A DNA stretch of 64,000 nucleotides, from assembly GCA_037133435.1 (NCBI GenBank), contig JBAXOD010000004.1, forward strand, positions 90 to 64,089, read 5' to 3'. Positions 46,038 through 63,768 of this stretch are shown piece after piece. This DNA is from Candidatus Moraniibacteriota bacterium. GTDB lineage: Bacteria > Patescibacteriota > Minisyncoccia > Moranbacterales > UBA1568. Within the stretch, counting starts at the first letter, position 1; each line of letters opens with the position of its first letter. Position numbers and translations under genes: made by a program. The notes under the pieces are model-generated. The model was not told where the DNA came from. It worked only from the letters and a program-made list of their open reading frames with translations, and did not search any database.

Positions 46038-46049
46038 ATTCATATCATT

Positions 46050-46190
46050 TCGAAATCACTCCCGCCCGTTCCACTATCCGCATAACACCCCGTTCCGCGT
46101 CGACCTCGACGAGATCACCATTGCGCAGGATTTGAGTCGCGATCTTGGTTCCGACGATGCATGGAATTCCAAGCTCGCGGCTTGTCAGTG
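46050..46190 (-). pseudogene. Remnant of a PEP-utilizers swivel domain lacking the catalytic-His segment.
   Basis: Translation SLTSRELGIPCIVGTKIATQILRNGDLVEVDAERGVMRIVERAGV lies in a different frame from the upstream ORF. The ...GGxTCHAAIV segment is missing. Confidence 0.45.
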
Positions 46191-46197
46191 ATACTTC

Positions 46198-48645
46198 CTA
46201 TTTCCGACCGCCACGATTAATCACGTTTTTCACCAGTTCCTTTTCCGTATCAGTCGCGATCCGCACCTTCCCTCCTCGGGCGACCGTCATACATTCCCCG
46301 TTCATCCGCTCCTCGGAAGTCCGTTTCAAATGCTCGATGTTCGTCTTCAATCCGGCGAGTTCTTCGGTGAAAAGGAATTTCAAATTTTTGATCGGGATTC
46401 CGAAACGCGCCGAGAGCTCCTTGAGCACGTTCCCATACTCGTAACAGAGCTGATATTCGAGCATCTTCCGTTCATCCGTCCAAATCGCCATCGTACGGAG
46501 TATCGTGATCCACTGTTTCGCTTTTCTGTCGGCAAGATACTGTTTTGCGAGATATTCCGATCGTTGTCTTGTATCGTGTTCATGCCGATTCATCGCCTCC
46601 AGCCTCTCGGGTATCGTTTTCCGACGGACGCGATTCTCATTGATCCGATCGGCGAAATATTCCTCATCCAAGACACTGGGGCCATCGTATCCGAATGGGA
46701 TCCAGTAATATCGCCGTACAAGTCGTCTCACAGCGGCATTAACATTTGGATCATGATCAAGTGACACTTCGAGGATTTCCCGTTCCATCCGAGTAGGATG
46801 GTTCTCCTGCTCTGGTAAAGACAGCGCGTCCAGATCTTCCGCAGGAATCCCAAGTGCGGTCGAAACCCGTTTCACGAATGGTTCCTTGGCGACAAACCTG
46901 TAAAAGACGCTCGCCGCGTCATATCGCATGAAGAGGTCTCGCACTCTCTCCGCAAGTCCGAAGAGATCGCGATCACTTGTCACTTCGAGATCCCGTTTTT
47001 CCATTTCAGCCAGAAAAGAAAGGACTTCCTTTTTCGCCTCTTCGGTCGATCGGGCGATCTGCTCATAAAAACCGTTCTCTGAAAACAGTCTTTCCGCGAC
47101 GAGAGCCCCGACTTCTTCCCAATCCTTCTCGGGAATGACGACATTCATTTTCCCTTCTGAAAAGAAATTGTACTCGACCGGAAAGGTTTTTCCGTACAGC
47201 TCAGAAACGAGCGGGCTCGTCTGGATCAACGCGTTCCAATAGATCGGTGCGAGGTCGTATTCCCCGGTCATCGGCACGACGAATTTCTTGTCCGTTCCTT
47301 CTTTGGTAGCATGCTCCCGTTCCGAAAGTTTTCGCACTATCCCCTGGTCGGCATCGACTTCGACCAGATCTCCATCCTTGAGTATTCGTGTGGCATTTTG
47401 GGTACCGATGATACATGGGATTCCCAGCTCGCGCGATACGATCGCGGCATGACATGTCACGCTTCCCTCGTTGGTGACGATGGCCGCCGCCTTCCTGAGG
47501 ATAGGAGCGTATTCCGGACGGGTCATAGAGGCGACCAAAATATCCCCTTCCTCCACCTTGTCAAAATCATCCCTCCCCATGACGACACGTACCGGACCAG
47601 ATGCCCGGCCTTTGGAAGCGGTCACTCCCGAAAGACTGTCATTGAACGCCGATGTCGACAGTTTCTCCCACTCTTCCTCGGTGATGTCCGTAAATCCGGT
47701 TTCATGCGATGTCCGAATGAGACGTTCACCGGGATACTCCGACAAGTGACCGCTCTTCTTCTGCCGTTCGAATTCGTCCGGCGAGAGCATGACCGCCTGC
47801 TCATACCTGATACCGTAAATGTCGCATTCCCGTTTCAGATACCGGCAATACAGTACGTTGAAGAGCATATTGCATCGTTTCCGTTCATCACGGATATGCG
47901 TCGCGAAACCGATCCATTCGGGCATCGTTTCCGGCCGTCCGATCTCACCCGGCTCATCGACAGTACCGCCTTCCATCAATCCGGAAAGCCGATCGGTAAA
48001 ATAGGCCAGTCCCGTGGGATGGTATCCTTTGTAGTCGCTCAAGATGAACGAATACAGTGCGGCGTGATCCCGAAGCTTTTCATCTTTTTCGACGCCGTCA
48101 TCCATTCGGGCGATCTGCCGCAATTCCCGCTCTTCCCGTGCGATGAACGATTCGCCGGGAATTTTTACGTCGCTCAAATCTATATGATGTTCCGATACGT
48201 ACGATTCGAACGCCACGTCCATGACATATGCCACCCCGATGACCCATGGGAACAGTTCTGCATATTCATCGTAGAATTCCGACTTTTCGGGAATTCGGTC
48301 GTACAAAACTTCCGCGTAGTTTATCTCCTGCAATCGGTCCGCGAGCGGCGCGATGGAGGAATACTGCCGATAGAGCGTCTCGGTGAATTCGACATCCCCC
48401 TCCTCGAGCAGTCGTATGAAGTGCATTCCGTAATCAATGAGAGACTCCTTTGGAATGATGACCTCACTGTTCCCCTCGTAGCGATACCGGATATACCAGG
48501 GTCCGCACAGGTAGGAATCATTGTATCTGAGAAGCGACGACGCCCCGCCGTGAAAAAAATTGGTGATCGGGTACATCGGCAAATTGACATGAAAAAAATC
48601 ATGTTCCGTCCGGCGTGACGACAGGGAATCCTTTTCCGAAGCCAT
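46198..48645 (-). CDS. Tandem fusion of two paralog units: [N-domain + PEP-utilizers swivel domain] followed by a second N-domain whose swivel domain is deleted or frameshifted.
   Basis: Swivel domain GSVTCHAAIVSRELGIPCIIGTQNATRILKDGDLVEVDADQGIV lies mid-protein. A possible internal second start is MTGEYDLAPIYWN. The C-terminus ends ARGGKVRIATD..., just where a swivel domain should begin. Start taken at MASEKDSL... Confidence 0.55.
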   Translation of the reverse strand: MASEKDSLSSRRTEHDFFHVNLPMYPITNFFHGGASSLLRYNDSYLCGPWYIRYRYEGNSEVIIPKESLIDYGMHFIRLLEEGDVEFTETLYRQYSSIAPLADRLQEINYAEVLYDRIPEKSEFYDEYAELFPWVIGVAYVMDVAFESYVSEHHIDLSDVKIPGESFIAREERELRQIARMDDGVEKDEKLRDHAALYSFILSDYKGYHPTGLAYFTDRLSGLMEGGTVDEPGEIGRPETMPEWIGFATHIRDERKRCNMLFNVLYCRYLKRECDIYGIRYEQAVMLSPDEFERQKKSGHLSEYPGERLIRTSHETGFTDITEEEWEKLSTSAFNDSLSGVTASKGRASGPVRVVMGRDDFDKVEEGDILVASMTRPEYAPILRKAAAIVTNEGSVTCHAAIVSRELGIPCIIGTQNATRILKDGDLVEVDADQGIVRKLSEREHATKEGTDKKFVVPMTGEYDLAPIYWNALIQTSPLVSELYGKTFPVEYNFFSEGKMNVVIPEKDWEEVGALVAERLFSENGFYEQIARSTEEAKKEVLSFLAEMEKRDLEVTSDRDLFGLAERVRDLFMRYDAASVFYRFVAKEPFVKRVSTALGIPAEDLDALSLPEQENHPTRMEREILEVSLDHDPNVNAAVRRLVRRYYWIPFGYDGPSVLDEEYFADRINENRVRRKTIPERLEAMNRHEHDTRQRSEYLAKQYLADRKAKQWITILRTMAIWTDERKMLEYQLCYEYGNVLKELSARFGIPIKNLKFLFTEELAGLKTNIEHLKRTSEERMNGECMTVARGGKVRIATDTEKELVKNVINRGGRK

Positions 48646-48784
48646 AGACGTGAATATTAACGCTATGAGAAACCTACCGACAGTATACGGCCATATATAT
48701 CCCGTCGGCAAGCTCCAACAGACCATCAGGACACGAAAAACGGCCCGGGAAATCCGAGTAGCTATCGTCGTTGAATTGTGATCG

Positions 48785-49861
48785 CTACACCGCCCGATCA
48801 GCCTTTTCCACAGCGACTTCCTTCTTTTCTTTAACAAATCCCGCGATCGTCTGAAGCGGTACGTCCTCGTTAAAGACGAATGTACTCGCCGTCCCGTCCG
48901 CTTTCACGTACTCTTTCGTAAAGGCGATGTTGACAACCGGCTCATCCTCACCCGGCACAGTCATGATGTCGACTGTAAACCCCTCGACGTCACCAAATCC
49001 CACATTGCCCAGCGATTCGACGAATGCGTTCCGCTCCTCCACTCCCTTGGTCGTTTCGATCAATTTTGCCAAGAACGATTCCCCGATTCCCTGATGGGAC
49101 CCAAAAAACCGTTCGAGTGTTTCGGTATATCCTTTCGACTCTTTTCCGCTCGCAACACGAAACGCGTCTTGCGCAACGAGCTGATCCCAGTTCTTTTCCA
49201 CCTTCGCATATTTCACGAGAACTTCGGCAATATTTGATACAAAATCCGAATATCGGGAATCAGTCGTATTTCCAAGTTGCTCTGCGAGTGCGTCGCTCTG
49301 CTCGATAAGAAATGAAAGGTATCGTTTTTCCCCGATCGACTTCACCATCGCGGTGCCATATTCACCCTTCATGTCGAGTGCGAAGTCCAGTCGACTGTCC
49401 ACTCCGGTCTTCTTACCATTCAATTCGAATCCGTTATCGAGCGCTTCTTGAGAAACGACCCCGGCATCCACGGCTTCCTGTGCGAGTGCGGCGTCGAATT
49501 TCGCCTTCAGTTCATCGAGTGTCTCGTCTCCCGTTATAGCATCTTCACTTCCCGCCATCTTGAATGCCGCCGTCTGCTCAGCGCGCGGTTTCGTACTACC
49601 GAAAGCAATCGACTGTCGAACATTCGTTTCCGGATTGCTCGCCGCAACCGCCTCGCCTCGCCCCTTTTCTGACAACAACACCGAATCCGCAGTCTGTCCC
49701 TCCGCGGGTTTCGCCTTGTCCCCATGCCGGAAGAAGCTCAGTCTCGTCCGGGAGGAATACTTCCTGACTTTCTCCTTCTCAACGCCCTTCCACTCGACCG
49801 ATTCCGGAGTCTTCTCAGGTACCTGTTCAATAGGATGCAACCTATCAAAACCAAATTTCAT
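48785..49861 (-). CDS. Histidine-phosphatase-superfamily (phosphoglycerate-mutase-like) protein with a C-terminal extension.
   Basis: LSFFRHGDKAKPAEGQ (RHG motif) and LSEKGRGEA. Start taken at MKFGFDRL. Confidence 0.5.
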   Translation of the reverse strand: MKFGFDRLHPIEQVPEKTPESVEWKGVEKEKVRKYSSRTRLSFFRHGDKAKPAEGQTADSVLLSEKGRGEAVAASNPETNVRQSIAFGSTKPRAEQTAAFKMAGSEDAITGDETLDELKAKFDAALAQEAVDAGVVSQEALDNGFELNGKKTGVDSRLDFALDMKGEYGTAMVKSIGEKRYLSFLIEQSDALAEQLGNTTDSRYSDFVSNIAEVLVKYAKVEKNWDQLVAQDAFRVASGKESKGYTETLERFFGSHQGIGESFLAKLIETTKGVEERNAFVESLGNVGFGDVEGFTVDIMTVPGEDEPVVNIAFTKEYVKADGTASTFVFNEDVPLQTIAGFVKEKKEVAVEKADRAV

Positions 49862-49924
49862 ACTATTTTCCTTACGAATTATATACACCCGTATTATACA
49901 CCCATCATATCCGCCGTGAAGAAA

Positions 49925-51463
49925 TCATACCTCTGCCCGCTCAAGTATCCGCACCACCCCGTGATCCGCGTCCACCTCCACAAGGTCGCCGTCATGGAGT
50001 ATCTTCGTCGCAGTCTTCGTGCCGATCACGCACGGCTTCCTCATCTCCCGGGCGATGATCGCCGCGTGGCAGGTAATACCGCCCATATCGGTAATGAATG
50101 CTCCTGCTTTCTGCATGGCCGAGATGAGATCCGGATTCGTCGAAGGCGATACCAATATATCCCCGTCATTCATCTTCACGACATCTTCTCTGTCGATGAT
50201 GATCTTCACCGCTCCTTGCACCTTTCCGACGAACGCTGTCGAGCCTTTCAATTCCGTCACTTCATCAATCGTTATTTCTTCCATAATCTCCCGCCTGACC
50301 CGTTCAATCGCGTTATCATCAAGCACCTCCGTCTGCCCACCACCGATACGAAACATGCAATATTTCGTCCGTTTTTTCGCTATGGTCGAAAAATCTTTCT
50401 TCTCTTTGAGCGCTTCACCGATTTCCGCGGTCGTGAGATATTTCGTCTCCTCCACCGAAAGTCCGACCCGCTTCGCGATCTCCGTAATAACCGGATCCAT
50501 CGCCACATATGATTTCTGATATATCCCCTTCCGGTGGTCTTTCAGGGAAAGGAATGTCGCATATATCCGGAACAGGTGTTGCAAATCGTCCGTCAAGCCT
50601 ACTTCCTTGATTATCTCCTCTTTTTCGCGAGCCAGTTTTTCCGAGCGTTCGACGAGCCTCTGTAGTTTGGTTCCGACCGTTTCTCCGGTCGCCAGGAATT
50701 CCGAAAGCGACACTACGACATCATTCGGCGTCATTCCTGGCCCCTCGTACGCGTACGGGAGCCATTCGAATTCCCTCGCATGCGCCACGATACGTCCGTG
50801 AATCTCCGGGGATGCGTCACGAATATCTTCGAGAAACCGTTCCGGGGATTCGGTCCGCATACGCTCCACCGCATCGCGATCCATTGCAAGGATATCCGCA
50901 AGCATCCTTATCCATGCGATCTCCTCGGTCCGAACTTCGCTCTCTTCCTCGCTCGAACTCAATACGGAAAACAGGGAAGCCGTTCGTTCTTCCATTCCAT
51001 GTTCTTTCATGAATTCCTGAAACGCCTCCTGTATATGATTTGTCAAAAACGATTCCAGCATCCCATCGATAATCACCGGCACCCAACCCCACACCCGCAT
51101 CACACCCAATTTGTGAGCATACGTCACATATAGGTCGTTTAATTCCTGCTCGGTCGCCACTGACACATCGCGATCCCTGATCGAATCACAAAACGCAAGC
51201 AATGTCGCTCCCTCCCCAAGCGTACGATCCTTGACCATGGCCGCGAATCCGGGGTCAGCGAGAGTTCTCGCACAGAGCGCTTTCCCGAGAGCGTTCATCT
51301 CCGAAGGATCCAGATAGTAATACATGTGTCCCTTACAAAATTCGAGCAGTATCGATGAGATTTTGAGACCGAGTACCCTCTCCATGTCGTTCGTCAACAC
51401 CTCGTCGGAAAAATACCATGGATAAAGGTACATCCGGTTCCTGTCCCAGATCTTCTTATACAT
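49925..51463 (-). CDS. PEP-utilizers swivel-domain protein (unknown ~400-aa N-domain plus C-terminal phosphohistidine domain).
   Basis: DGDILVSPSTNPDLISAMQKAGAFITDMGGITCHAAIIAREMRKPCVIGTKTATKILHDGDLVEVDADHGVVRI. Confidence 0.7.
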   Translation of the reverse strand: MYKKIWDRNRMYLYPWYFSDEVLTNDMERVLGLKISSILLEFCKGHMYYYLDPSEMNALGKALCARTLADPGFAAMVKDRTLGEGATLLAFCDSIRDRDVSVATEQELNDLYVTYAHKLGVMRVWGWVPVIIDGMLESFLTNHIQEAFQEFMKEHGMEERTASLFSVLSSSEEESEVRTEEIAWIRMLADILAMDRDAVERMRTESPERFLEDIRDASPEIHGRIVAHAREFEWLPYAYEGPGMTPNDVVVSLSEFLATGETVGTKLQRLVERSEKLAREKEEIIKEVGLTDDLQHLFRIYATFLSLKDHRKGIYQKSYVAMDPVITEIAKRVGLSVEETKYLTTAEIGEALKEKKDFSTIAKKRTKYCMFRIGGGQTEVLDDNAIERVRREIMEEITIDEVTELKGSTAFVGKVQGAVKIIIDREDVVKMNDGDILVSPSTNPDLISAMQKAGAFITDMGGITCHAAIIAREMRKPCVIGTKTATKILHDGDLVEVDADHGVVRILERAEV

Positions 51464-51468
51464 ATCGA

Positions 51469-52071
51469 TTACTGATACAGATTACGCAGTCTCGATTCCG
51501 CCAATTCGCGAAATTCCGGAAAAATGAACGTACAAAGACTCTCATCGAGCATCTTTTTCACTACTGATTCATCGGAATAGAGATCGCGAACGTTCTTTAA
51601 TCGAAGTTCGGAAAAACGATCCAACCGATCAAAGTCATGAAAAATCTTCTTATTCTCGGTATCATAAAATCGATCGTGGTCGATTCCTTCCAGAGCATCG
51701 GCATCGTGAATACTGATGATATCGACGATCTCGCCCGATTTTCCTGTATCATATCCCGCGGACTCGAGCACTTCCCTCGCAACCTTCGCTCCGGTCAGCA
51801 TATGCACCAGTTTTCCATTTACAATCTTTTCCGGACCCGTGACATACCGGAAGTGCTCGGGCAATATCGCGATATGCCCGATATCGTGCATCATCGCGAC
51901 CGGGACGAGTACATCGAGGTCTATCGGAATCCCACCCCGATATTCAAGAATCATCTTCACCGTTTCCACGGCATGATCTACGTCTCCCGCCCTACCCCGT
52001 TCCAACATCGGTTTTGCCCGATCCCAGATATTCCGATACGGTTCCGGCACGAATGCATCCTCATATTCCAT
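51469..52071 (-). CDS. HD-domain phosphohydrolase.
   Basis: VAMMHDIGHIAI ... HDAD motifs. Confidence 0.7.
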   Translation of the reverse strand: MEYEDAFVPEPYRNIWDRAKPMLERGRAGDVDHAVETVKMILEYRGGIPIDLDVLVPVAMMHDIGHIAILPEHFRYVTGPEKIVNGKLVHMLTGAKVAREVLESAGYDTGKSGEIVDIISIHDADALEGIDHDRFYDTENKKIFHDFDRLDRFSELRLKNVRDLYSDESVVKKMLDESLCTFIFPEFRELAESRLRNLYQ

Positions 52072-52334
52072 ATTCGTAGAACGTTACATGTATTTTCACT
52101 ATACCCTCGTTTCGAATCTCCCTCAATCGATTCGAAATAATCATACGGTTCTCTCTTGCCAACGGTATATAATTAATATATCATAGGTTATACCATGCGT
52201 GTCTCACTAAAAACCCCTCATCACACAAAATAGCCCTCTATGGGGCTGTTTTTTGACTCTTTTTGTTCCGCACGACTTGAAATGAAAAACTTGGGATACT
52301 GAAGGGGCTATTTTATCCACCACCAGTATCCGCT

Positions 52335-52589
52335 ATGTATCAAGGGAAGTATGTTTTCGCACAAATCATGGAATACCTGCCTCGACACGAGTTCGATATA
52401 TGTGTCGCTCGATATCACGGAGAACGGTATGCTAAACATTTCTCGTGTCGTGATCAGTTTCTTGCGATGGTATTCGGACTCCTTCCCATCGATTCCGCTA
52501 TCGCCCGACACGAATACCCCTTGTCGAGAAGAATCCCGATCTCAAGCCGCTCGGCACGGCTCAGTTTTTTCATTTTTTCCATGCGGTAA
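52335..52589 (+). pseudogene. IS4-family transposase N-terminal fragment (DUF4372-like), truncated.
   Basis: MYQGKYVFAQIMEYLPRHEFDICVARYHGERYAKHFSCRDQFLAMVFG matches the conserved N-terminus of IS4-family transposases, and the remainder diverges. Inverted motifs caaaatagcccc / ggggctatttt lie at 52224 and 52297. Confidence 0.5.
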
Positions 52590-52683
52590 TTATAGACCAA
52601 GAGTGTCCTAATCCAGAACGGAATGAATTTTTAACAAGGCAGTCAAAGAACATTCAACCATCAACCGAAAGGGAGAGCTTATA

Positions 52684-54129
52684 ATGCGACATTTAGCCAT
52701 AAGGCCGGAAACGGTCGCTTACGTAATCACGGTCCACAACCATCTCCACACACATCCTGAAACCCGTTGGGAAGAGACCAAAACACTCTCCTATATCAAA
52801 CAACAAATCGGGTTTCTCGGTATCAAGGGCAGTCTATCAGAATTGCAAGGGGGTCTGACATTCGATTATGTTGTTAATCCGAATCTCGCATGGGTCCTCT
52901 TCCGGGCGGATATCGATGCTCTTCCGATTCTGGAACATGTGGAGAATGTCCCAAGATCGGAAAATGACGGGGTCATGCATGCATGCGGACACGACATCAA
53001 TACTGCCGTTCTCCTCGGGCTCATGAAAGAAATCGCGGACGACTACGTCTTGCCGACGAAAAATATCCGTTTTGTCTTCCAGCGTGCCGAGGAAAATCCT
53101 GGTGCGTCGCCACAGGCGAAATCAGGCGGTGCCAGTCTCGTTGAAGCGGGTATCTGCGACGGTATGTCGGCAGCGTACATGCTTCATACTTGGGCCGAAG
53201 GAACACCCGGTGCTTTTTCCTCTCGACCCGGTGCCATGCTGGGATGCAGCGATCGGATGGGTATCATTCTCTCACTCGAGGAAGGCCGCGATCCGAAAAC
53301 CATCATGCAAGCACTCCAGACGATCTGGAACACCTTGGAAGGATTTCCGAACCGGACGATCGGTCCGATCGAACCGGCGACGCTGGAGCCGGTCAAAGGA
53401 AGGAAGGCAAGCAATGTCATGCCTGACAAGGTATGGCTTTGGTATGCGATCAATCCATTCGCATTTCTTCCACAAGGGTTAGAAAATATCAGGAAAATCG
53501 TCATCGCCGCCTTCCCGGAAACGAAACTCGAATTCTTTCGTGAGAACGACTCGATCGTCGTTTCCGTGGAATCGACCGGCGGACATGTCGCTTTACCGCA
53601 AAAAGGCACGAATGCCCTCCGCGCCTCTCGGTTCGTCATGAATACGATCGACATGCTCGGCTACTCGGTATCTATGAAACCGATTTCCTATTCATGCGAT
53701 ACCGACAAAGATATGGGAAAATCGAATGTTCTCGAGGCCTGGTACGGCGTTCGAACCATGCTTTCAGCGAAAAGACGCGACGAATATTTCGTCGAACTCG
53801 AACGAGTCGTGGTATCCGTAGTCTCGGCGTTTCCGGGAGTCGGTGTCAGGATCGAGAAAATACTCGGCCACCCCGCTCTCATCAATACCGACTTCGAAAA
53901 AATTGCAGGAGTATTGAAAACTGCCGGAGAAAACGTCGAAAAAGCCGATCCGAGTCTCGGTGGTGAGGATTTCGCGTATTACCTCCAGAAAATTCCCGGG
54001 TCATCCTGGCTGCTCTGCACGCACCGGGAAGGAAGCGGTCACCTCCATACCGCCACGTTCAATCCCGATCCGGAAATTTTCGCCGAGAAGGGAGTACGGT
54101 TCTGGACGCTCTTGGCCACGGAGCCGTAA
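52684..54129 (+). CDS. M20/M20D-family amidohydrolase (hippurate hydrolase / N-acyl-amino-acid amidohydrolase-like).
   Basis: HACGHD motif. 481 aa. Confidence 0.7.
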   Translation: MRHLAIRPETVAYVITVHNHLHTHPETRWEETKTLSYIKQQIGFLGIKGSLSELQGGLTFDYVVNPNLAWVLFRADIDALPILEHVENVPRSENDGVMHACGHDINTAVLLGLMKEIADDYVLPTKNIRFVFQRAEENPGASPQAKSGGASLVEAGICDGMSAAYMLHTWAEGTPGAFSSRPGAMLGCSDRMGIILSLEEGRDPKTIMQALQTIWNTLEGFPNRTIGPIEPATLEPVKGRKASNVMPDKVWLWYAINPFAFLPQGLENIRKIVIAAFPETKLEFFRENDSIVVSVESTGGHVALPQKGTNALRASRFVMNTIDMLGYSVSMKPISYSCDTDKDMGKSNVLEAWYGVRTMLSAKRRDEYFVELERVVVSVVSAFPGVGVRIEKILGHPALINTDFEKIAGVLKTAGENVEKADPSLGGEDFAYYLQKIPGSSWLLCTHREGSGHLHTATFNPDPEIFAEKGVRFWTLLATEP

Positions 54130-54154
54130 ATGAAGGTTCCCAACAGACAGCAAA

Positions 54155-54190
54155 ACTCTTCCGTTCAAAATGCGCGGAAGAGCTTTTTTT
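54155..54190. terminator. Bidirectional intrinsic terminator.
   Basis: aaaactcttccgttcaaaatgcgcggaagagcttttttta. Confidence 0.6.
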
Positions 54191-54206
54191 ATTCTTTTGA
54201 ACCGAG

Positions 54207-55133
54207 TCAGACATCGATATCGAGAAGATAGGTGACGACAGCGAGACCGATTTCCATGAACGGCTCCCGTTTCATATAGAGAGCGCGTGGATCCGAATCG
54301 ACCGCCTTCTCAATCTCGAATATTCTCGGTGTGATCATGCTAAGAACCGCGTCAGGACGCAATCGTTTCATGTGTTCCGTGTTGATCGGAAGATAGGATT
54401 TGAGAATCAATTCTTCCTTTTCTTTCGGGAATTTGTTTTCCGGAATGATGCCTTTCTGCAGCCCTCGCGTCACCACGAGCACGTCGACATCACCGATGAA
54501 ATTATCGAGCTTGTCATATCGCAGTTCGACGAGTCCATTGCGCACGGCGTCTTCCTCGACCTGCTTCGGCACCGGAAAATGACCCAAATCATCCACGACA
54601 AGACTCATCTTGTACATCCCCATGACCGGAATGAGGGATTTGCAGACACGGTTGATCTCTGGTGTCCCGTACAACCCCACTTTCAACCCCTCCAACGGAC
54701 GCCCGGAGTGATAGAACCAATCATAGAGCATCATCGCGGCACCGACCGCATGTTCCTTCGAACCACTGCCACCGTTTATGACCGGCACGGCGGACGCCGC
54801 CTTCGCCCGCTCGGCCGAATCCTCATCGGGGTGGCGCAAAACGATGACATCCGCGAGACTGCCGAACGTGGTTATCGTATCATCGAGGCTTTCGCCTTTT
54901 TCCATGGAAATACCCTGTTCTCCGGAAACGGCAAGATACCCGCCTCCGGCACGAATCATAGCAGACTGGAATGAACCGGCCGTCCTGGTCGAGGGCTGAA
55001 AAAACAGGGTTGCCGCGATTTTTCCACGGCAGATGTCGGGTGAGATCCCTTCATCCACGAATTTCTTCGCGCGCCGAAAAATCTCGTCATAATCCGACCG
55101 ATCGAGGTCCTGCGAATTTATGAGGTGTTTCAT
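54207..55133 (-). CDS. Aspartate/ornithine-carbamoyltransferase-family protein (substrate unknown).
   Basis: FFQPSTRTAGSF (STRTR motif). 308 aa. ATGA overlap with the upstream M20 gene. Confidence 0.65.
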   Translation of the reverse strand: MKHLINSQDLDRSDYDEIFRRAKKFVDEGISPDICRGKIAATLFFQPSTRTAGSFQSAMIRAGGGYLAVSGEQGISMEKGESLDDTITTFGSLADVIVLRHPDEDSAERAKAASAVPVINGGSGSKEHAVGAAMMLYDWFYHSGRPLEGLKVGLYGTPEINRVCKSLIPVMGMYKMSLVVDDLGHFPVPKQVEEDAVRNGLVELRYDKLDNFIGDVDVLVVTRGLQKGIIPENKFPKEKEELILKSYLPINTEHMKRLRPDAVLSMITPRIFEIEKAVDSDPRALYMKREPFMEIGLAVVTYLLDIDV

Positions 55134-56581
55134 ATGACTGCCTCTCCGGTCGATCCGCCCTCAGGGCGCATCGATGACGATGAATTATAATGATTAATGC
55201 CGTTTAACGCGAGTATGGAGTACGCTTCGGCGAGATCCTTCAGCGCCTCGGGATCGATTCGGAAATTCGGGGAATGATGATCCACCTTCGGGTACCCGCT
55301 GTCGGGACTTGCACCGCCGATCCCCATATACACGCCGGGTATCCGTTTGCTTTGCAACTCTTCAAGGTAAAAGGAGAAATCCTCTCCGCCCATGATGAGC
55401 GCATCATCTTGTTTGGCATTATCCCCCATAACTTCTCTGGCCGATCGCACGGCCAGACCCACCAATTCCGCATCATGATGGACGACCGGACGATATCCGT
55501 CCCGTCGTTTGAATTCGACCGTTATTTCCTTGTTTACCGCTGAGCCTGTTGGATCCATTCTTTCAAGTTCCTCGAGATGTCGCGAAATAACCTCGTCCGT
55601 CACCTGCCGTATCTCGCTTGCTACGGACTGTGACATTTTTTTGAAATCAGGCGAAGCGATACGGATTACCCAGGTGCTTTTTCCGGATGCCGGCATTACG
55701 TTGTATCCCCCGCTTGAATATTCCGGTCCGCGGGTATTGATGACCGCTTCGTTTTTTTCAAAGAGCGGCCGAAATCGTTCCTGTAATTCCAAAGTGATCT
55801 GGGAAAAAACGCGGTTCAGATCGGGACTCTCATACGAATTCATGATGTGACCTCCGGGACCGTGCAGTTCGATATCCATCTCGCCGGAACTCGCCATAAA
55901 GACGCCTTCACGGGTCAGAATAGTTCCTTTCTCCGCCATACCGAAGACATGAAGACCGAAGAAAGCCCGAATATCATCACGAAGCCCGTTTCGCTCAAGA
56001 AATGCTATCATGGGGACCGAACCCGGTTTTTTCTGATGCGCTTTCTCTTCACTTGGCTGAAATAAGAGGACGACTTCCCCCTTGAGCGCTCCCTCATCCG
56101 CCAACTCCTTCAAGATACGCGCCGCCCCCATGAGACCTGCAGTGTGCAGATCATGACCACAGCCGTGCATCATTCCGTTTTTCTTCGAGCGGGGCTCGTT
56201 CACCGGGTTTTCCTCCATTGGCAACGCGTCCATATCGGCCCGAAGCGCGACTATAGATCCACTCTCCTTACCTTTGATCTTCGCCACGATTCCGGTTCCG
56301 CCGATACCTTCACCAAGAATCTCGATTCCGAGCGATTCGAGGTGCAGTTTGACACGCGCCGCCGTCTCGAATTCCTCCCCTCCAAGCTCGGGATTCTCGT
56401 GGATAGCGATATAATCCTTGAGCATTTCAGGATAGATCTCCCGTGCCCGTTCGACGATCCGACCGGCGAGGGTCTGTTCCCTCTTTTCCATCTTCAGGTC
56501 GGGAGTGTTGCCAACCCCCGAGTCATTCAAGATTTGCTGTTCATGCTTCATATTTCTCGATATTTTGCGATATGTTTCCAT
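55130..56581 (-). CDS. M20D-family amidohydrolase.
   Basis: MHGCGHD motif. Start taken at METYRKIS... (the track ORF extends to 56764 and would overlap the next gene). Confidence 0.65.
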   Translation of the reverse strand: METYRKISRNMKHEQQILNDSGVGNTPDLKMEKREQTLAGRIVERAREIYPEMLKDYIAIHENPELGGEEFETAARVKLHLESLGIEILGEGIGGTGIVAKIKGKESGSIVALRADMDALPMEENPVNEPRSKKNGMMHGCGHDLHTAGLMGAARILKELADEGALKGEVVLLFQPSEEKAHQKKPGSVPMIAFLERNGLRDDIRAFFGLHVFGMAEKGTILTREGVFMASSGEMDIELHGPGGHIMNSYESPDLNRVFSQITLELQERFRPLFEKNEAVINTRGPEYSSGGYNVMPASGKSTWVIRIASPDFKKMSQSVASEIRQVTDEVISRHLEELERMDPTGSAVNKEITVEFKRRDGYRPVVHHDAELVGLAVRSAREVMGDNAKQDDALIMGGEDFSFYLEELQSKRIPGVYMGIGGASPDSGYPKVDHHSPNFRIDPEALKDLAEAYSILALNGINHYNSSSSMRPEGGSTGEAVI

Positions 56582-56594
56582 TCTATCAGACCGA

Positions 56595-58046
56595 TCACGA
56601 TCGGCAAATTTCCGAGGAAATAAGCCGCACGACCCCGTGATCCGCATCCACCTCCACGAGGTCGCCGTCATGGAGGACTCGTGTCGCGTTCGATGTGCCG
56701 ATAATGCACGGGACGTCCAATTCGCGGGACACGATAGCAGCATGACAAGTGACGCCACCTTCATCGGTCACGATCGCGGCCGCCTTTCTCATGAGCGGAA
56801 CATACTCCGTCCTGGTCATGGACGTGACAAGGACGTCCCCTTCTTCAAACGAAGCGAAATCGTTTCCGCCGAAGATCACTTTTACCGTGCCCTTTCCAAA
56901 TCCTTTTCGGGCGACGGTTCCACGGATCTCAGACAGAGACATTTCGGGACGGGACACGAGAACATCATAGATTCTCGCGATAGCCGCATCGGGGTCGGAA
57001 TATTCGAAATGCGGACCCTCGGAATCGCAGAAGACGACACACCGTTTTCTTTTTTCCAATTCGTCACCGTATCCCGGCTGCCGATACCGATCCGTAAAGA
57101 AATCCGCATACGCGGCATTTGGCGCAAGGTCGGTCAAAATTCCGGTGCGCGAGAGAGCTTCCTTCGCCGCGACGGCGATGATCGTCATGATCCGCAACTG
57201 GGGTTCCTTCCGGATATCCCGAGTTTTCATGGACAGCTGGATGAAATCGAACAATTTCCGAAGCGGCGGCTCAAGTGTCGCGCGATACGTCTCCAGCCGT
57301 TCCTTATTCATCCGTATTTCCGACACTCTAAGGCTGATTTCATCTCGTATTCCGGCTGCGCCTCCTTTTTCAATCATCGTTTCTTTCACTTTCGAGTCGA
57401 ATCGATCGATATCGACCGCATCATGATAGTCGGTGAAAATCCACAGAGCGTCTTGAACGTTCCCATCGACCAGATACTTTTCGATCTGTCTGTCGGCTCG
57501 GAGCGAGAAGGATTCGAACACAGGCAGCGTTGTTTTGGCGAGAAATTCATCAAAATTTCGGTCGTTACCTCCGGACTCACGATACATCTTCCGTATCAAT
57601 TCCTCATCGACCGCCTCCGAGAAAATGGACGAGGAAAGGAGATCCCAATACGACTCGAACGCCTCCCGAATTAGCGATTCCATCTGGACGTCGAAATACC
57701 TGCCGAGTTCCGACAGGTTCGTGGTCGAGTACAGGGCGTGGATACGCTCCGACACATTCACGAAATCCGAGTATTCACGAAAGTCATCGTTTTTCTCCAA
57801 CCTGCAGAATCGCTCGTATGAGATCAGCGACGTCTTCGTATACGTTTCCATATCAAAAAACAGCACGCCGTATTTCGGTTTGGCAATAAATAGCACTTTT
57901 TCGAAATCAAAATCGTAATATCGTGACGAGTACGGCGGAAATATTTCGGGTACGAAACTCATGAAAAGAAGGCATGAGAAATTTCCTTCCTGCTTCGTAA
58001 TAGTGGCCGTCTTTATCCCGTCCAGATATCGATCGACATTATCCAT
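56595..58046 (-). CDS. PEP-utilizers swivel-domain protein (N-domain plus phosphohistidine domain).
   Basis: EGDVLVTSMTRTEYVPLMRKAAAIVTDEGGVTCHAAIVSRELDVPCIIGTSNATRVLHDGDLVEVDADHGVV. Confidence 0.7.
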   Translation of the reverse strand: MDNVDRYLDGIKTATITKQEGNFSCLLFMSFVPEIFPPYSSRYYDFDFEKVLFIAKPKYGVLFFDMETYTKTSLISYERFCRLEKNDDFREYSDFVNVSERIHALYSTTNLSELGRYFDVQMESLIREAFESYWDLLSSSIFSEAVDEELIRKMYRESGGNDRNFDEFLAKTTLPVFESFSLRADRQIEKYLVDGNVQDALWIFTDYHDAVDIDRFDSKVKETMIEKGGAAGIRDEISLRVSEIRMNKERLETYRATLEPPLRKLFDFIQLSMKTRDIRKEPQLRIMTIIAVAAKEALSRTGILTDLAPNAAYADFFTDRYRQPGYGDELEKRKRCVVFCDSEGPHFEYSDPDAAIARIYDVLVSRPEMSLSEIRGTVARKGFGKGTVKVIFGGNDFASFEEGDVLVTSMTRTEYVPLMRKAAAIVTDEGGVTCHAAIVSRELDVPCIIGTSNATRVLHDGDLVEVDADHGVVRLISSEICRS

Positions 58047-58057
58047 ATCATATCATC

Positions 58058-59110
58058 TTATCGTGAACCACCGCGTTTCACCACCCGCACCACCCCGTGA
58101 TCCGCGTCCACCTCGACCAGGTCGCCGTCACGGAGGACCTGTGTCGCGAACTTGGTTCCGATGATACAGGGCTTGCCCATCTCGCGTGCGACGATGGACG
58201 CATGGCACGTGATACCGCCCTCGTCGGTGACGAATGCGGCGGCTTGTTTCATGGCGGGAAGGAAATCCGGCGTCGTCATGGGCGACACGAGAATATCCCC
58301 GTCATGCACCGCATCCATATCACTTTGCTTCCGCACGATACGCACGACACCGGTTACGACGCCCTTGCAGGCAGACTGGCCCTCCAGTTCATTCCGATCG
58401 ATCACCGCTTCGGTTTCAAAGACGTATTCCGGATGGGTCGCGACGTATTCATCGATCGTACCGAGTTTCGCCTCTTTGCCGTCTATCAGGAGATACGATT
58501 TCAACCGTCGTTCCAGAATTTCCGCAAACGGAATATTTTCCACCTCGTCCGGCAATACGACTCCGGCCGCCTCGGAGGAAATTCCTGCCAATCCGGAAAT
58601 CTCCGTGCGCACGAACGCATCGTTGTCCGCGAAAAAGTCTGCGATCTCACGGGCACGAACGGCAACTTCCTGAGCCTCATCCGGACTCCTCTCGTCCGTT
58701 CCGGTATAGTAAAACAACGTCATGCGGAGCGCGGCATAAGAGATCGCGTCTGCATAATCCTTCCGGCCCGAAGGAGAAGAAAAGCAGTCTTTCCCGCGAA
58801 GGGTCTCGATATTTTGAAGCACTTCCACGTATTCCTCGAATACCTTTCCGAGAAACGCAGTCCCCTTCCGATTCTCCTCGAGCAACCGGTCCAAGAACCA
58901 CCGCATACCCGTTTGGTGTTCCCAGATTTCCACGACGCCATCACGGACGAAATGTCCGACCAACGGCAGATAGGGATTCTTCCAACCGAATGCCTCTTCG
59001 GTTCCGTGTGAAAGCGTCCCGGCCCAGAGCGCCTGCATATAGAGGGTCGTATCTCTGGAATTGGCTTTCTCGAATCGAAGTGACGGAGCGGGATGTACAA
59101 CGTTCGACAT
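58058..59110 (-). CDS. PEP-utilizers swivel-domain protein (middle domain plus phosphohistidine domain), the partner of the ATP-grasp protein upstream.
   Basis: DGDILVSPMTTPDFLPAMKQAAAFVTDEGGITCHASIVAREMGKPCIIGTKFATQVLRDGDLVEVDADHGVV. Start taken at MSNVVHPAPSL. Confidence 0.7.
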   Translation of the reverse strand: MSNVVHPAPSLRFEKANSRDTTLYMQALWAGTLSHGTEEAFGWKNPYLPLVGHFVRDGVVEIWEHQTGMRWFLDRLLEENRKGTAFLGKVFEEYVEVLQNIETLRGKDCFSSPSGRKDYADAISYAALRMTLFYYTGTDERSPDEAQEVAVRAREIADFFADNDAFVRTEISGLAGISSEAAGVVLPDEVENIPFAEILERRLKSYLLIDGKEAKLGTIDEYVATHPEYVFETEAVIDRNELEGQSACKGVVTGVVRIVRKQSDMDAVHDGDILVSPMTTPDFLPAMKQAAAFVTDEGGITCHASIVAREMGKPCIIGTKFATQVLRDGDLVEVDADHGVVRVVKRGGSR

Positions 59111-59151
59111 AAGGATATATCGAAAAAATATGATCGGGCGACGGAAGACGA

Positions 59152-60114
59152 TCAGTCTTCCTTCGTCGTGCCGCCGGCAAGTGTGGTGATCGGACGTGAC
59201 TGGACGATATGGAATGCGCTCCCTTCGTACGCCCACTCGATGTCGCATGGGAATCCGTAATGATTTTCGATCCGCATGACGATGTCGGCGAGTTCAAGAA
59301 CCAGGGTATCATCGAGTTTCCGGTCCGAGCCGTGCTCACCGAGGTCACGCCATTCGTTCCCGCCGTCTTCCTTGCGGTAGATGCCGCGTGTCTGGTCGCT
59401 CACGTTCACGTCGAGGATATTCCGACCTTTTTTTGAGATAACATAGGAATCCGGGGTGATCTGCCCGGAGACGATCGCCTCGCCCAGTCCGAAGCCGGCC
59501 TCGATGATGATCTGATCATGATCCTCGGTCACCGGATGGACGGAAAACGCGATCCCACTCACCTCGGACTCGATCATTTTTTGCACGACGACCGCTACCG
59601 ACACACGTGAATCACGGAGGCCCTGTTCAAGGCGGTAGAAGATGGCCCGCGGGGTGAAAAGCGAGGCGAAACAGCGTTTCACGTTTCGCAGCAGGGTCGC
59701 CTCGGTGGTATTGAGGAAAGAATCGAGCTGTCCCGCCCACGCGGCCGACGCCGAGTCCTCGGCGGTCGCCGAAGAACGCACCGCAACGAACTTCGCGTCG
59801 AGCTCGATAAACGCATCCGTGACCGCTTTCGCGATATCTTCTGGCATGTTTGCTTCCAAAATGTGCTTCTGTATGCGTTCGCTCGCGTACTCGACCGTGT
59901 GAATCTGATCACGGTTCACATCATTGAGTTCACTTTCGATCTCCTGCACGAGATCCGCTTCCGCAAGAAACCGCTCAAACGCATCCGTAAGGATGACGAA
60001 TCCCTGCGGAACAGGAATACCGGCCTGTGTCATTTCGCCGAGCGATGCGCCCTTGCCCCCGGCGATACCGGCGTCGCTTTTCGAGAGAGAAGCAAAAGGA
60101 AGGATATAGGCCAT
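59152..60114 (-). CDS. Stand-alone PPDK_N-type ATP-grasp nucleotide-binding domain protein (PEP synthase / rifampin phosphotransferase N-domain-like).
   Basis: DAGIAGGKGASLGEM ... FAVRSSATAEDSASAAWAGQ ... DIEWAYEGSAFHIVQSRPIT (canonical domain end). Start taken at MAYILPF. Confidence 0.75.
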   Translation of the reverse strand: MAYILPFASLSKSDAGIAGGKGASLGEMTQAGIPVPQGFVILTDAFERFLAEADLVQEIESELNDVNRDQIHTVEYASERIQKHILEANMPEDIAKAVTDAFIELDAKFVAVRSSATAEDSASAAWAGQLDSFLNTTEATLLRNVKRCFASLFTPRAIFYRLEQGLRDSRVSVAVVVQKMIESEVSGIAFSVHPVTEDHDQIIIEAGFGLGEAIVSGQITPDSYVISKKGRNILDVNVSDQTRGIYRKEDGGNEWRDLGEHGSDRKLDDTLVLELADIVMRIENHYGFPCDIEWAYEGSAFHIVQSRPITTLAGGTTKED

Positions 60115-60130
60115 ATGATTCTTCAAATAA

Positions 60131-60826
60131 TTAACTGATGATGGTTCCTTCGAATGCCTCGCCCGCGAGATATCGGGACACGTTCCCGAGATCGCCACCA
60201 GACAAGATGGCCACTTCCATCCCTTCTTCTTCGGCGAGCTTGGATGCGATCGGATCGAACGGTGCGTTCAATCCCGGCGTCCATTCCGATCCCACGAGCT
60301 CACGAAATTCCGGCCAGGTCATCCTCTCGAATTGCTGCGCATCCGGAAATTCACGCGGATCGCGGTCGTACACGTGATCGATATTGGAAAGGTTGACAAT
60401 CTTCTTCACGCCGAGGTACTTCCCGAGGAGCGTGGCATCGTAGTCGGTCGAGCAACCCGGGCGCCAACCGGCCGCTACGAGAATGGGGCTGCGCGCAAGG
60501 TAGAAATCCTCCAGGTCGTGCGGGTTCGTATTGATGCGCGGATAAGAATACTCGCGGAGTATGGTCCGCAACAGCTGCGCATTGAGACGTGTCGCGTGAA
60601 TACCCATCCAGTCACGATCTTCGTCGGAAACCGGAGTCGCCTCGCTCGCCGCATCGATATACGCCCGCGCCGTCCGCCCCCCTCCGGTCACCACGATGAA
60701 CCGTCTGCCTTTCGCGATCTCGCCCTCGATGAATTCCTTGAACGTCTTCAGAAACCGCCAGTCTATGCCGTCCGGCACGATAAGCGATCCCCCGAGCGAT
60801 ATGATGATGCGATCAGAATCTTCCAT
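60131..60826 (-). CDS. Amino-acid-kinase-family protein, UMP kinase (archaeal/eukaryal-type PyrH)-like.
   Basis: IISLGGSLIVPDG ... FIVVTGGGRTARAYI. Confidence 0.55.
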   Translation of the reverse strand: MEDSDRIIISLGGSLIVPDGIDWRFLKTFKEFIEGEIAKGRRFIVVTGGGRTARAYIDAASEATPVSDEDRDWMGIHATRLNAQLLRTILREYSYPRINTNPHDLEDFYLARSPILVAAGWRPGCSTDYDATLLGKYLGVKKIVNLSNIDHVYDRDPREFPDAQQFERMTWPEFRELVGSEWTPGLNAPFDPIASKLAEEEGMEVAILSGGDLGNVSRYLAGEAFEGTIIS

Positions 60827-61183: not shown

Positions 61184-61210
61184 CTGTTATCTGTTATCTG
61201 TTATCTGTTA
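61184..61210. repeat. (CTGTTAT)x4 heptamer tandem repeat spanning the proS stop codon.
   Basis: ctgttatctgttatctgttatctgtta. Confidence 0.6.
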
Positions 61211-62438
61211 AATATTCCACGAGTTCGGACAATTTGACCATCTCGGTTTCTTCACTCGTCCGACGTTTCACCTCCGCTTCACCGTTTTCTGCGGAACGCT
61301 TGCCGATTACGACCCGGTACGGGATACCCAACAAGTCGCTGTCCGCGAATTTTTCTCCCGCGCGCGCGTCCCGATCGTCATAGAGCACCTCGACACCCGC
61401 GTCGAGCAGCGTCCGATACGCCGCATCGGCTTCCTCGTCCGCCCCGAGCGACAGGAGGTGTACCCTGAAAGGCGCGATCGCCTCGGGCCAGACGAGTCCT
61501 TTTTCATCCGAAAATTGCTCAACCACGATTCCCATGAGCCGAGTGATGCCGATACCGTATGATCCAAGAATCACCGGTTTCTGACTCCCGTCCTCATCCT
61601 TGAAGAAGAGTCCGAGTTGCTCGCATTTCGTCCCGCCGAAACTGAAGATATTTCCCACCTCGACCGCTTTCACTTCCTCGAGCGTCTCACGGTCCAACCC
61701 GAGTTGTGTGACCACCTCGTCCGTCAGCACTTCCTGATTGATCGCGATCTTCTTGTTCCGATCGAGATAGATGACATCTTCCCCAACAGACGAAATCGTC
61801 TGAAATTCATGACTGAACTGCGTGAACGCTCCTCCCGAAGCAAAGGTCAAAAAGGTCGAATCACCGAGTCCGACGCGCTCGAAGACGCGTAGGTATGCCG
61901 CGATTGCACTGTCATAAAAAGCCTTGTGATCCTCTTCCGTGCGACTGTACGAATACAGGTCCTTCATCACAAACTCACGCCCCCGCATGATGCCGGATTT
62001 CGCCCGAAGCTCGTTTCGCAGTTTCGTCTGAAATTGATATCCGTAGACCGGCAAATCCCGATAGCTCGAGATATAGTTCCGCATCATATCCGTGATCGGC
62101 TCCTCGTGCGACCAGCCGAACCCGACCTGCCCGCCGTTCTTGAGCTCCGATTTGAACCACACATCGACCTTGCGGTCGTCCCATCGATCCGTTTTCTCCC
62201 AGAGTTCCTTCCGCTGAAGCGACGTCATGATGAACTCCTGACACCCCAGCGCGTTCATTTCTTCCCTGACGATTCCCTTGATCTTCTCGATTACCCGAAG
62301 CCCGAGCGGCATATAGGCATACACCCCGGCCATCTCCTTGTGGACGTACCCGGCCCGGATCAAGAGCTGCGCATTGCGGCTTTCCTCGTCCTTGGGCGCC
62401 TCCCGCCGCGACCGGGTGAACAGCTGGCTTTGTCTCAT
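61194..62438 (-). CDS. proS: Prolyl-tRNA synthetase, short bacterial form lacking the INS editing domain.
   Basis: MRQSQLFTRSRREAPKDEESRNAQLLIRAGYVHKEMAGVYAYMPLGLRV. Class II motifs present. About 415 aa. Confidence 0.85.
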   Translation of the reverse strand: MRQSQLFTRSRREAPKDEESRNAQLLIRAGYVHKEMAGVYAYMPLGLRVIEKIKGIVREEMNALGCQEFIMTSLQRKELWEKTDRWDDRKVDVWFKSELKNGGQVGFGWSHEEPITDMMRNYISSYRDLPVYGYQFQTKLRNELRAKSGIMRGREFVMKDLYSYSRTEEDHKAFYDSAIAAYLRVFERVGLGDSTFLTFASGGAFTQFSHEFQTISSVGEDVIYLDRNKKIAINQEVLTDEVVTQLGLDRETLEEVKAVEVGNIFSFGGTKCEQLGLFFKDEDGSQKPVILGSYGIGITRLMGIVVEQFSDEKGLVWPEAIAPFRVHLLSLGADEEADAAYRTLLDAGVEVLYDDRDARAGEKFADSDLLGIPYRVVIGKRSAENGEAEVKRRTSEETEMVKLSELVEYLTDNR

Positions 62439-62463
62439 ATCGGCTAAAATTAACAATAGTACC

Positions 62464-62928: not shown

Positions 62929-63768
62929 TCAAAATCCACTGCGGGAGGCCACGGCACGCAAAACCGAGAACGAGCCAACCGGCGTGACCCCGAACACGCA
63001 CGCGCCAAGCGCGCCCGCATCGCCGAAGCAAACGAGGCTGCCGTCGGTCGAAGGGGAAGATGACCATGAATAGAAATCCCTGAATAACTTTTCACCGGTA
63101 CAGCCATGGACGATCAGGTACCGGAAAAATGTGTTTTGCACGGGTTCCCGAAGAAGACGGACGATATCAAGGACGGTAAGGAAAAGTGTCGTAGCAGCAT
63201 TGTTCCCTTGTTCCAGCAGTTGATACGCAACCTTCCGCTCGTATCCTTCCCATTTCGATATCGCTGTTTGCAATGCCCGTGGAAGGCGGCCGCTCAACAG
63301 ACTTTCCATGTTTCCAATCAGAACATCCGTCTGACTGATAAAGTTTTCTCTTGCCGTACCAGCTACCTCTTCGGGTGACACAAATTGCCATCCGCTCCGG
63401 AGTACAGTAGAAGAAACAAGCAAGTCATTTTTCATCCAAGCTCTCTCTTCGTAGTTCCCACTCTCTTCGAATTGGTCACCCCACAGCAATCCCGCGGGAA
63501 GCGAACTCACAACAGACGAATACCAAGTCGCCATCTTCTCGAGCGTTATCGGTGTGTTCTGTAGCCGGTTCGGATAGCAGAACCGAACCGGATAGCAGAT
63601 CAGCATATGCCCCGCTTCTGCATGCAGTTCATAGTCTTTCGACGTCCAGTATCCCGGAAGCGGATCGTCTTTCGGACGGAAACCGAACACCTGTTCGGTC
63701 TGGTCGTCAGCATAGAATTTCTTCCCGAATATGCTTTGTGCATCGGGTATGGTCATTTTGATATCCAT
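62929..63768 (-). CDS. Hypothetical protein (279 aa). GC content is lower than the surrounding genes.
   Basis: ORF MDIKMTIPDAQSIFGKKFYADDQTEQ... with no recognisable family. It is flanked by identical 40-bp palindromes. Confidence 0.45.
   Translation of the reverse strand: MDIKMTIPDAQSIFGKKFYADDQTEQVFGFRPKDDPLPGYWTSKDYELHAEAGHMLICYPVRFCYPNRLQNTPITLEKMATWYSSVVSSLPAGLLWGDQFEESGNYEERAWMKNDLLVSSTVLRSGWQFVSPEEVAGTARENFISQTDVLIGNMESLLSGRLPRALQTAISKWEGYERKVAYQLLEQGNNAATTLFLTVLDIVRLLREPVQNTFFRYLIVHGCTGEKLFRDFYSWSSSPSTDGSLVCFGDAGALGACVFGVTPVGSFSVLRAVASRSGF

Follow-up and report, generated by a model that had tools for sequence, protein, structure and literature searches.

Introduction

In the textbook view, a swivel-domain dikinase is a machine made of one polypeptide chain, and its single histidine arm moves back and forth between two active sites in fixed positions. 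Here we consider a block of minus-strand genes at positions 46050-60198 of a 64-kb stretch of DNA from a Candidatus Moraniibacteriota bacterium (contig JBAXOD010000004.1; the whole stretch is referred to below as the window). One gene of this block, J, encodes an ATP-grasp loader, and four others, I, H, C and A, encode modules that combine an N-terminal acceptor domain with a swivel domain bearing the phosphorylatable histidine. Characterised relatives of these proteins act on hydroxyl groups of small molecules. We think that the block probably represents a split, multi-acceptor small-molecule dikinase of the rifampin phosphotransferase (RPH) family, in which J charges the swivels of I, H, C and A in trans.

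RPH has in common with the block the three-part architecture of grasp, acceptor and swivel domains and presumably also the chemistry (PMC4844700); the block differs in that the grasp is a separate protein, that each grasp is accompanied by four to five acceptor modules, and that the hosts belong to the Candidate Phyla Radiation (CPR) or to DPANN. In addition, the swivel sequences of the array are nearer to that of phosphoenolpyruvate (PEP) synthase (T-C-H, with a Thr of the regulatory type). The division into a grasp polypeptide and a polypeptide carrying acceptor and swivel is also found in HpeHI, CreHI and phenylphosphate synthase PpsAB, the components of which work in trans, with the conserved swivel His being essential (PMC12167813). 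These systems, however, are 1:1 gene pairs for phenolic compounds encoded in catabolic operons (PMC12167813), whereas the arrays described here combine one grasp with up to seven modules of about ten subfamilies, often joined into polyproteins, and are accompanied by phosphatases rather than catabolic enzymes; no aromatic-catabolism genes were found near the array. PpsA and PPDK share with the array the ATP-grasp, the swivel and the GGxTCHAAIVSRE motif, but the array lacks their PEP/pyruvate TIM-barrel domain and has instead a helical acceptor domain located N-terminally to the swivel. In the prodigiosin ligases PigC, RedH and HapC and in glucan water dikinase, a grasp and a swivel His likewise serve a non-pyruvate acceptor; unlike the array, these are single-polypeptide, single-module enzymes with other acceptor domains and known pathways. 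Matches to the NCBIfam models for PigC and RedH fall on the grasp and the swivel, and in C the RedH match also runs on into the end of the acceptor domain. The PRK08296 models, which we take to be PpsA models, match the window proteins in the swivel region only.

The novelty of the block lies solely in its one-to-many layout, the two-component split having already been described for HpeHI, CreHI and PpsAB. The initial annotation of this DNA was aware of no described system with one loader and many swivel partners. As far as the layout is concerned this stands, since in the searchable literature we found no account of one grasp combined with as many as seven or more modules in arrays or polyproteins, nor of such a layout spread over CPR and DPANN, of about ten recurring acceptor subfamilies or of a tight link to phosphatases; it does not stand for the split as such (PMC12167813).

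One ATP-grasp loader and four intact swivel modules

Gene J (59152-60114, minus strand) encodes a stand-alone ATP-grasp protein of 320 aa (Pfam PPDK_N, E=5e-97). PPDK_N is present in no other gene of the window, and a grasp hidden Markov model (HMM) run with filters off over the entire 64 kb, module genes included, detected no second grasp. Residues 4-316 of J align with the ATP-grasp domain found in Listeria RPH (RPH-Lm, 5fbs), and the protein terminates at the same ...SRPITTL boundary as that domain. The residues that position ATP in RPH are Lys22, Arg117 and Thr136 (PMC4844700); the first two are kept in J and the third is replaced by Ser. For both the ATP-grasp and the swivel, the closest PDB sequences are of the PpsA/PPDK type (grasp against archaeal PpsA 8a8e, E=2e-64). 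Homologues of J are mostly stand-alone proteins of about 315 aa with 65-77% identity, forming more than 100 such protein clusters, and J is 63-77% identical to CPR and DPANN grasps irrespective of whether they are stand-alone or fused.

Complete PEP-utilizers domains, each with a GG(I/V)TCHA motif, are encoded by I, H, C and A, and a swivel HMM run over the 64 kb found these four, a C-terminal remnant at 46048-46197 and nothing else. The order of transcription on the minus strand is J, I, H, an inserted block (52684-56578), D, C, B and A, followed by a GT4 glycosyltransferase gene. Gene I (58058-59110), which starts after a spacer of 41 nt from the end of J (59152), encodes a short helical acceptor domain and a swivel (58094-58306; PEP-utilizers residues 269-339, E=3e-27). 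In H (56595-58046) and C (49925-51463) the helical acceptor domain is long, and the swivels map to 56634-56849 (residues 400-471, E=6e-26) and 49958-50170 (residues 432-502, E=2e-25), respectively. Gene A (46198-48645) encodes an 815-aa two-module fusion consisting of N-domain A1, an intact swivel (47341-47553; residues 365-435, E=3e-27) and N-domain A2 (about 46201-47313). The swivel of A2 has decayed: it lies in frame behind the stop codon of A (46050-46197; swivel HMM E=1.6e-16, model positions 69-109 only), about 20 residues are deleted upstream, and T-C-H has become K-stop-E, the His being replaced by Glu. The A2 orthologue P0082 has kept an intact swivel. A short swivel remnant is also present in the closest genome that we found (L001:7310-7498), where in addition a swivel-less N-domain gene (L001:13214-14383) lies directly upstream of a GT4 gene, a placement that matches that of A2 and its decayed swivel in the window.

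At the DNA level, the swivel-coding segments are repeats, present in four to five copies with 61-77% identity. Recent gene conversion among the swivels was considered and rejected because of this low identity, which identifies the copies as old paralogues.

The initial annotation was thus correct in recognising one PPDK_N gene, four intact swivels and a decayed one. It had also called the swivel genes consecutive, each ending in a swivel preceded by a domain of about 350-400 aa. The genes are in fact interrupted by B (48785-49861), by D (51469-52071) and by the block at 52684-56578; A continues beyond its swivel into a second N-domain; and the N-domain encoded at 58058-59110 has only about 250 aa.

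Arrays in CPR bacteria and DPANN archaea

Scanning species-representative genomes with J yielded 489 relatives, and the best 80 loci together with loci from earlier look-ups made up a set of 84 grasp loci in CPR bacteria and DPANN archaea. Represented among the 80 are many lineages of CPR and, on the DPANN side, Woesearchaeota, Micrarchaeota, Nanoarchaeota and one complete Iainarchaeum genome. Without exception, each of the 84 loci has exactly one grasp. Same-strand swivel modules downstream of it were counted in the 52 loci with at least 9 kb of downstream sequence: a single module is present in 19 loci, two in 10, three in seven, four in five, five in three, six in six and seven in two, that is, two to seven modules in 33 of 52 loci. 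In 62 of the 84 loci the grasp open reading frame (ORF) forms a fusion with one or more modules, while in about 22 it stands alone as in the window, which is a typical member of the group in its split state.

Fusions at the protein level join the grasp to an H-type domain and swivel (about 795 aa; P0241 and P0243-P0245, 44-48% identical to H), to an I-type domain and swivel (667 aa), or to as many as three modules (1432 aa, with one PPDK_N and three PEP-utilizers domains according to Pfam). Two-module proteins are also numerous, and stop-free ORFs of up to about 2400 aa occur in the survey. Directly after the grasp gene of a Woesearchaeota locus (L005:5724-14324, JAHWGY010000175.1), a stop-free ORF of 2867 aa comprises six N-domain and swivel modules; the recorded gene table contains only a 373-aa gene at its end. 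The same separation of grasp and modules was found in independent assemblies. Homologues of C are proteins of about 500 aa from Patescibacteria, Nanoarchaeota and Micrarchaeota, with "PEP-utilizing enzyme" as their sole annotation, and for the C-type N-domain by itself a library of 1.84 billion proteins yields matches to 903 cluster representatives; an exact look-up of the sequence of C itself returned no record.

The closest genome is 81% identical to the window in ProRS, 74% in PyrH and 77% in the grasp. There, ProRS, PyrH and the grasp are followed by five consecutive swivel genes, and 70 kb away on the same contig are orthologues of B, D and C, another swivel gene, an N-domain gene that lacks a swivel and the GT4 gene. 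No grasp is found near this distant module cluster. The presence of one grasp per locus, the existence of module clusters devoid of a grasp, and polypeptides with one grasp and several modules together support the idea that one loader serves several modules, and the one-loader/many-partner layout is strongly supported by comparative genomics.

The same data bear on the alternative that pairing is strictly 1:1, such that J and the adjacent I, perhaps with H, form a two-component dikinase, whereas C and A use a loader outside the window or are inactive leftovers. The characterised split dikinases are indeed 1:1 pairs (PMC12167813), 19 of the 52 loci have a single downstream module, unrelated genes separate C and A from J, and one swivel of the window has already decayed. 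We nevertheless regard strict pairing as unlikely. A second grasp occurs in none of the 84 loci despite the presence of up to seven modules within 10 kb, in the closest genome some modules are 70 kb away from the grasp and have no other nearby, one grasp and three modules can be part of a single polypeptide, and C and its family, which are conserved in 19 loci, retain all catalytic residues.

As a separate observation, grasp identity (loci L004-L086 and J of the window) is 69.3% among archaea and 69.5% among bacteria, against 67.9% between the two, in a sample that was selected by similarity and in which binning of metagenome-assembled genomes may err. With the same reservations, the nearest neighbour is bacterial for eight of the 17 archaeal-labelled grasps. 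Such similar identities within and between domains, together with the cross-domain neighbours, suggest either that the loader has passed between CPR and DPANN or that it is under very strong constraint.

Acceptor domains of the RPH type

The N-domains are helical acceptor domains of the RPH type, in which the R-E-x-x-K motif of RPH is kept as K/R-D-x-R-K. The structure of C, predicted from an alignment of 77 sequences, has a pLDDT of 94.8, and that of I, predicted from 14 sequences, a pLDDT of 91.9. The top Foldseek matches of the I model are RPH entries (E=3e-11), and the order of its N-terminal secondary structure elements is that of C. The acceptor domain of the modules is helical, of the RIF-binding type and immediately N-terminal to the swivel; its identity to RPH is only 15-21%. 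When the C-family profile is aligned to RPH-Lm, K308-D309-x-R311-K312 coincides column for column with R666-E667-Y-P-K670 (the motif in C being K-D-H-R-K); within the C family K308 is invariant and both R311 and K312 are nearly so. In RPH, R666, E667 and K670 serve the second phosphotransfer, which is abolished by mutation of Arg666 or Glu667 (PMC4844700). The corresponding motif is R-D-I-R-K in H, R-D-E-R-K in A1, T-D-E-R-S in I and T-D-E-R-K in A2. Together with the SRPITTL boundary and the retained Lys22 and Arg117 of J, this alignment supports the split RPH-type architecture proposed initially.

BLAST, phmmer and hhalign comparisons of single N-domain sequences recovered only the relation between A2 and C, with A1, H and I staying at the level of shuffled controls. 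Such comparisons are therefore insufficient, and family profiles and subfamily HMMs are needed to establish homology. At the profile level, A2 shows clear homology to the C family (hhalign E=1.7e-18) and is also homologous to subfamily F (HMM E=1e-53). Comparison of the H and C-family N-domain profiles gives E=3e-6 over 304 colinear columns, and the subfamily F HMM also matches H colinearly. A1 has a full-length homologue in locus L006 (E=4e-49). Cross-matches of the subfamily HMMs further indicate that the short N-domains correspond to the long type minus a central helical insert.

Clustering of 209 N-domains resulted in about ten major subfamilies. Their order is free, and any of them can stand first after the grasp. 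The window domains fall into subfamilies B (C; 23 members), D (H; 19 members), G (I; 14 members), F (A2; 18 members) and the rare group P (A1; three members), consistent with the initial statement that the paralogues carry different N-domains. Positional orthologues of I and H were not detectable in the closest genome (z<3). We had considered hypervariability of the N-domains, but dropped this idea because clustering places I and H in conserved subfamilies of other genomes; what varies is thus the repertoire rather than the domains. Matches of some homologues to UDP-GlcNAc 2-epimerase (PF02350) were likewise discarded as a clue to the substrate, as they are below the cut-off and located on the swivel itself.

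Association with phosphatase-type genes

Two further genes of the block encode putative hydrolases. The product of D (51469-52071, minus strand), which lies 5 nt upstream of C, is an HD-domain phosphohydrolase (24 bits for Pfam HD, where the cut-off is 22). The product of B (48785-49861, minus strand) belongs to the histidine phosphatase superfamily. The RHG motif noted initially is present in B, and a homologue scores 22.9 bits, but B itself scores 21.2 bits for Pfam His_Phos_1, just under the cut-off of 21.7.

We clustered the non-module ORFs located within 2.5 kb of arrays and compared this near flank (314 kb) with the farther flank (584 kb). Four families recur, all of phosphatase type. 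The most frequent (16 loci) consists of His_Phos_1 proteins of about 200 aa, whose best NCBIfam match is SixA, far below its cut-off (32 versus 74.5 bits). The second (12 loci) is the family of B, with weak His_Phos_1 similarity and an RH[GP] motif; its members are mostly inside the array on the same strand, and one passes the Pfam His_Phos_1 cut-off (22.9 bits). Low-molecular-weight (LMW) phosphotyrosine phosphatases make up the third (10 loci) and proteins of about 280 aa with an RHS motif and no database match the fourth (nine loci). The HD family of D adds two survey loci, and D orthologues that are 50-62% identical lie within or beside arrays in L001, L070 and L083. Altogether, at least one of these five families is found beside the array in 34 of the 84 loci, whereas none occurs in the 584 kb of farther flank. 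This tight clustering in other loci and absence from the farther flank imply that B and D belong with the system, as initially assumed for both, and the presence of phosphatase neighbours suggests that phosphorylation is reversible or transient.

The LMW phosphotyrosine phosphatase genes (L004:12407-12844, L008:16398-16841 and eight other loci) lie beside the arrays mostly on the opposite strand, and co-occur with N-domain subfamily E in seven of 10 loci, compared with 18 of 81 overall. The fourth family (L019:14455-15315, L070:8951-9778 and seven other loci) has RHS...GHE motifs without Pfam or NCBIfam matches, and its sequence suggests that it is possibly a divergent member of the histidine phosphatase superfamily.

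The phosphatases raise the question of whether the array could be a regulatory phosphorelay. The modules would then be His-phosphorylated through J and act on proteins or as sensors, with the phosphatases (SixA-like, LMW, B and HD) resetting phospho-histidine or phosphoprotein. A PPDK-derived regulatory histidine kinase, VadK, has been described (PMC13400623), the association with phosphatases is tight, and of their families one has SixA phosphohistidine phosphatase as its best NCBIfam match and another is that of LMW phosphotyrosine phosphatase. The SixA match, however, is the one that lies so far below its cut-off, and no response-regulator-like partner recurs near the arrays. Moreover, the N-domains have the small-molecule-binding fold of RPH along with its phosphotransfer motif, and the characterised relatives with this acceptor domain all phosphorylate small molecules (PMC4844700, PMC12167813). 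A phosphorelay thus seems to us a rather improbable explanation. It is still less credible, to the point that we set it aside, that the array is an artefact made up of broken full-length ppsA/ppdK genes or of modules self-sufficient through a hidden ATP-grasp: PEP synthase models are indeed the best NCBIfam names for the pieces, but they match the grasp or the swivel alone at 106-318 bits against cut-offs of 598-740, no array gene has a Pfam match to the PEP-utilizers_C TIM barrel, the unfiltered grasp HMM has no match in the module genes, the N-domains fold into helices in the manner of RPH and not into a grasp, and the split recurs in independent assemblies and in the more than 100 clusters of J-like proteins. 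In view of the missing barrel and the sub-cut-off matches, none of the modules is a cryptic ATP-grasp or a piece of ppsA or ppdK, and both objections that the initial annotation had raised against its own reading fall away.

A proposed shared loader and its implications

On the preferred reading, that of a split multi-acceptor dikinase, the likely order of the reaction can be deduced by homology with RPH and with HpeHI, CreHI and PpsAB. J, the sole ATP-grasp of the window, would bind ATP and phosphorylate the T-C-H histidine on the mobile swivel of a partner, with release of AMP and Pi. The swivel would then return to its own helical N-domain, where the phosphoryl group would be passed to the acceptor beside the K/R-D-x-R-K motif. 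One loader would in this way supply four swivel-bearing modules with different acceptor domains (I, H, C and A1), while A2 would represent a fifth acceptor domain, now devoid of a swivel of its own. B and the HD hydrolase D would most likely remove phosphate, either from the products or from phospho-histidine. The sharing of the loader in trans, the dikinase stoichiometry, the role of the phosphatases and the small-molecule nature of the acceptors are features that we infer, and the one-loader/many-partners proposal of the initial annotation fares accordingly: the layout stands, with one grasp in 84 of 84 loci, two to seven modules in 33 of 52 and natural fusions, while sharing in trans keeps the status of an inference. 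Its suggestion of glycan or antibiotic phosphorylation found no link in this analysis.

Several points weigh against the preferred reading. Where RPH has Arg666, neither I nor A2 has a basic residue, although the acidic residue and an Arg are retained, and A1 is linked only weakly to the other N-domains (E of about 3e-4 to 5e-4). Unrelated genes intervene between J and the modules C and A, which are 6-13 kb away from it. The search for grasps covered the 64-kb window, and a further one may be encoded elsewhere in the genome. The fusion of the grasp to the first module in 62 of 84 loci means that the extra modules could be charged less efficiently or not at all. Finally, kinases next to phosphatases would amount to a futile cycle unless they are regulated or operate within a longer pathway, and no such pathway was found.

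Extending the argument to the whole group, we lean, somewhat less firmly, towards a hub-and-spoke organisation. A single extremely conserved loader (63-69% identical between CPR and DPANN, with no split by domain of life) would charge a variable and horizontally exchanged set of up to seven or more modules. These modules, drawn from about ten subfamilies and encoded as separate genes or polyproteins, would each presumably have a different acceptor, and dedicated phosphatases would reverse the mark. If true, swivel-domain dikinases would have a new principle of organisation, and ultra-small symbiotic prokaryotes a trait in common. One ATP site would apparently serve many arms and acceptor sites, in trans or on polyproteins of up to about 2400-2900 residues, which raises questions of geometry, of how partners are chosen and of how the whole is controlled. 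CPR and DPANN, whose metabolism is poorly understood, carry the system widely, and the loader is among the better conserved proteins of these loci. About ten acceptor subfamilies may correspond to about ten phosphorylation targets, which could bear on scavenging, detoxification or interaction with the host. There is also a practical side to this, since the current labels "PEP-utilizing enzyme", "phosphoenolpyruvate synthase" and "pyruvate, water dikinase" can wrongly imply gluconeogenic capacity in metabolic reconstructions.

Other genes of the window

The gene at 60131-60826 had been listed with the block as an amino-acid-kinase-fold gene. It encodes an archaeal-type UMP kinase, PyrH (TIGR02076, 192 bits against a cut-off of 158; the bacterial pyrH model gives only 41 bits), and is a housekeeping gene outside the system. 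We note that an archaeal-type UMP kinase is thus carried by a bacterial (CPR) genome. The order ProRS-PyrH-grasp (PyrH at 60131-60826 and ProRS at 61194-62456 in the window) is shared with L002, L009 and L031, and PyrH-ProRS synteny is confined to close relatives.

The block that splits the array (52684-56578) contains two M20 amidohydrolase genes (TIGR01891), at 52684-54129 on the plus strand and 55130-56578 on the minus strand, and an aspartate-carbamoyltransferase-like gene at 54207-55133 (159 bits against a cut-off of 237). All three were rejected as members of the system, since they do not recur near arrays in other genomes. The 3' end of H lies within the overlap with a long ORF at 55130-56764.

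Across the 64 kb there is no match to an Rfam family at or above the gathering score, PADLOC defence models gave no match, and scans for promoters and terminators remained at chance level. GC skew is negative across the whole window (1-64000). Long ORFs without a Pfam match are located at 41453-43225 and 43075-44379 on the plus strand and at 32533-33660 and 62929-63768 on the minus strand; they are surrounded by genes for GT4 glycosyltransferases, a ClpB-type AAA ATPase and an NAD-dependent sugar epimerase/dehydratase.

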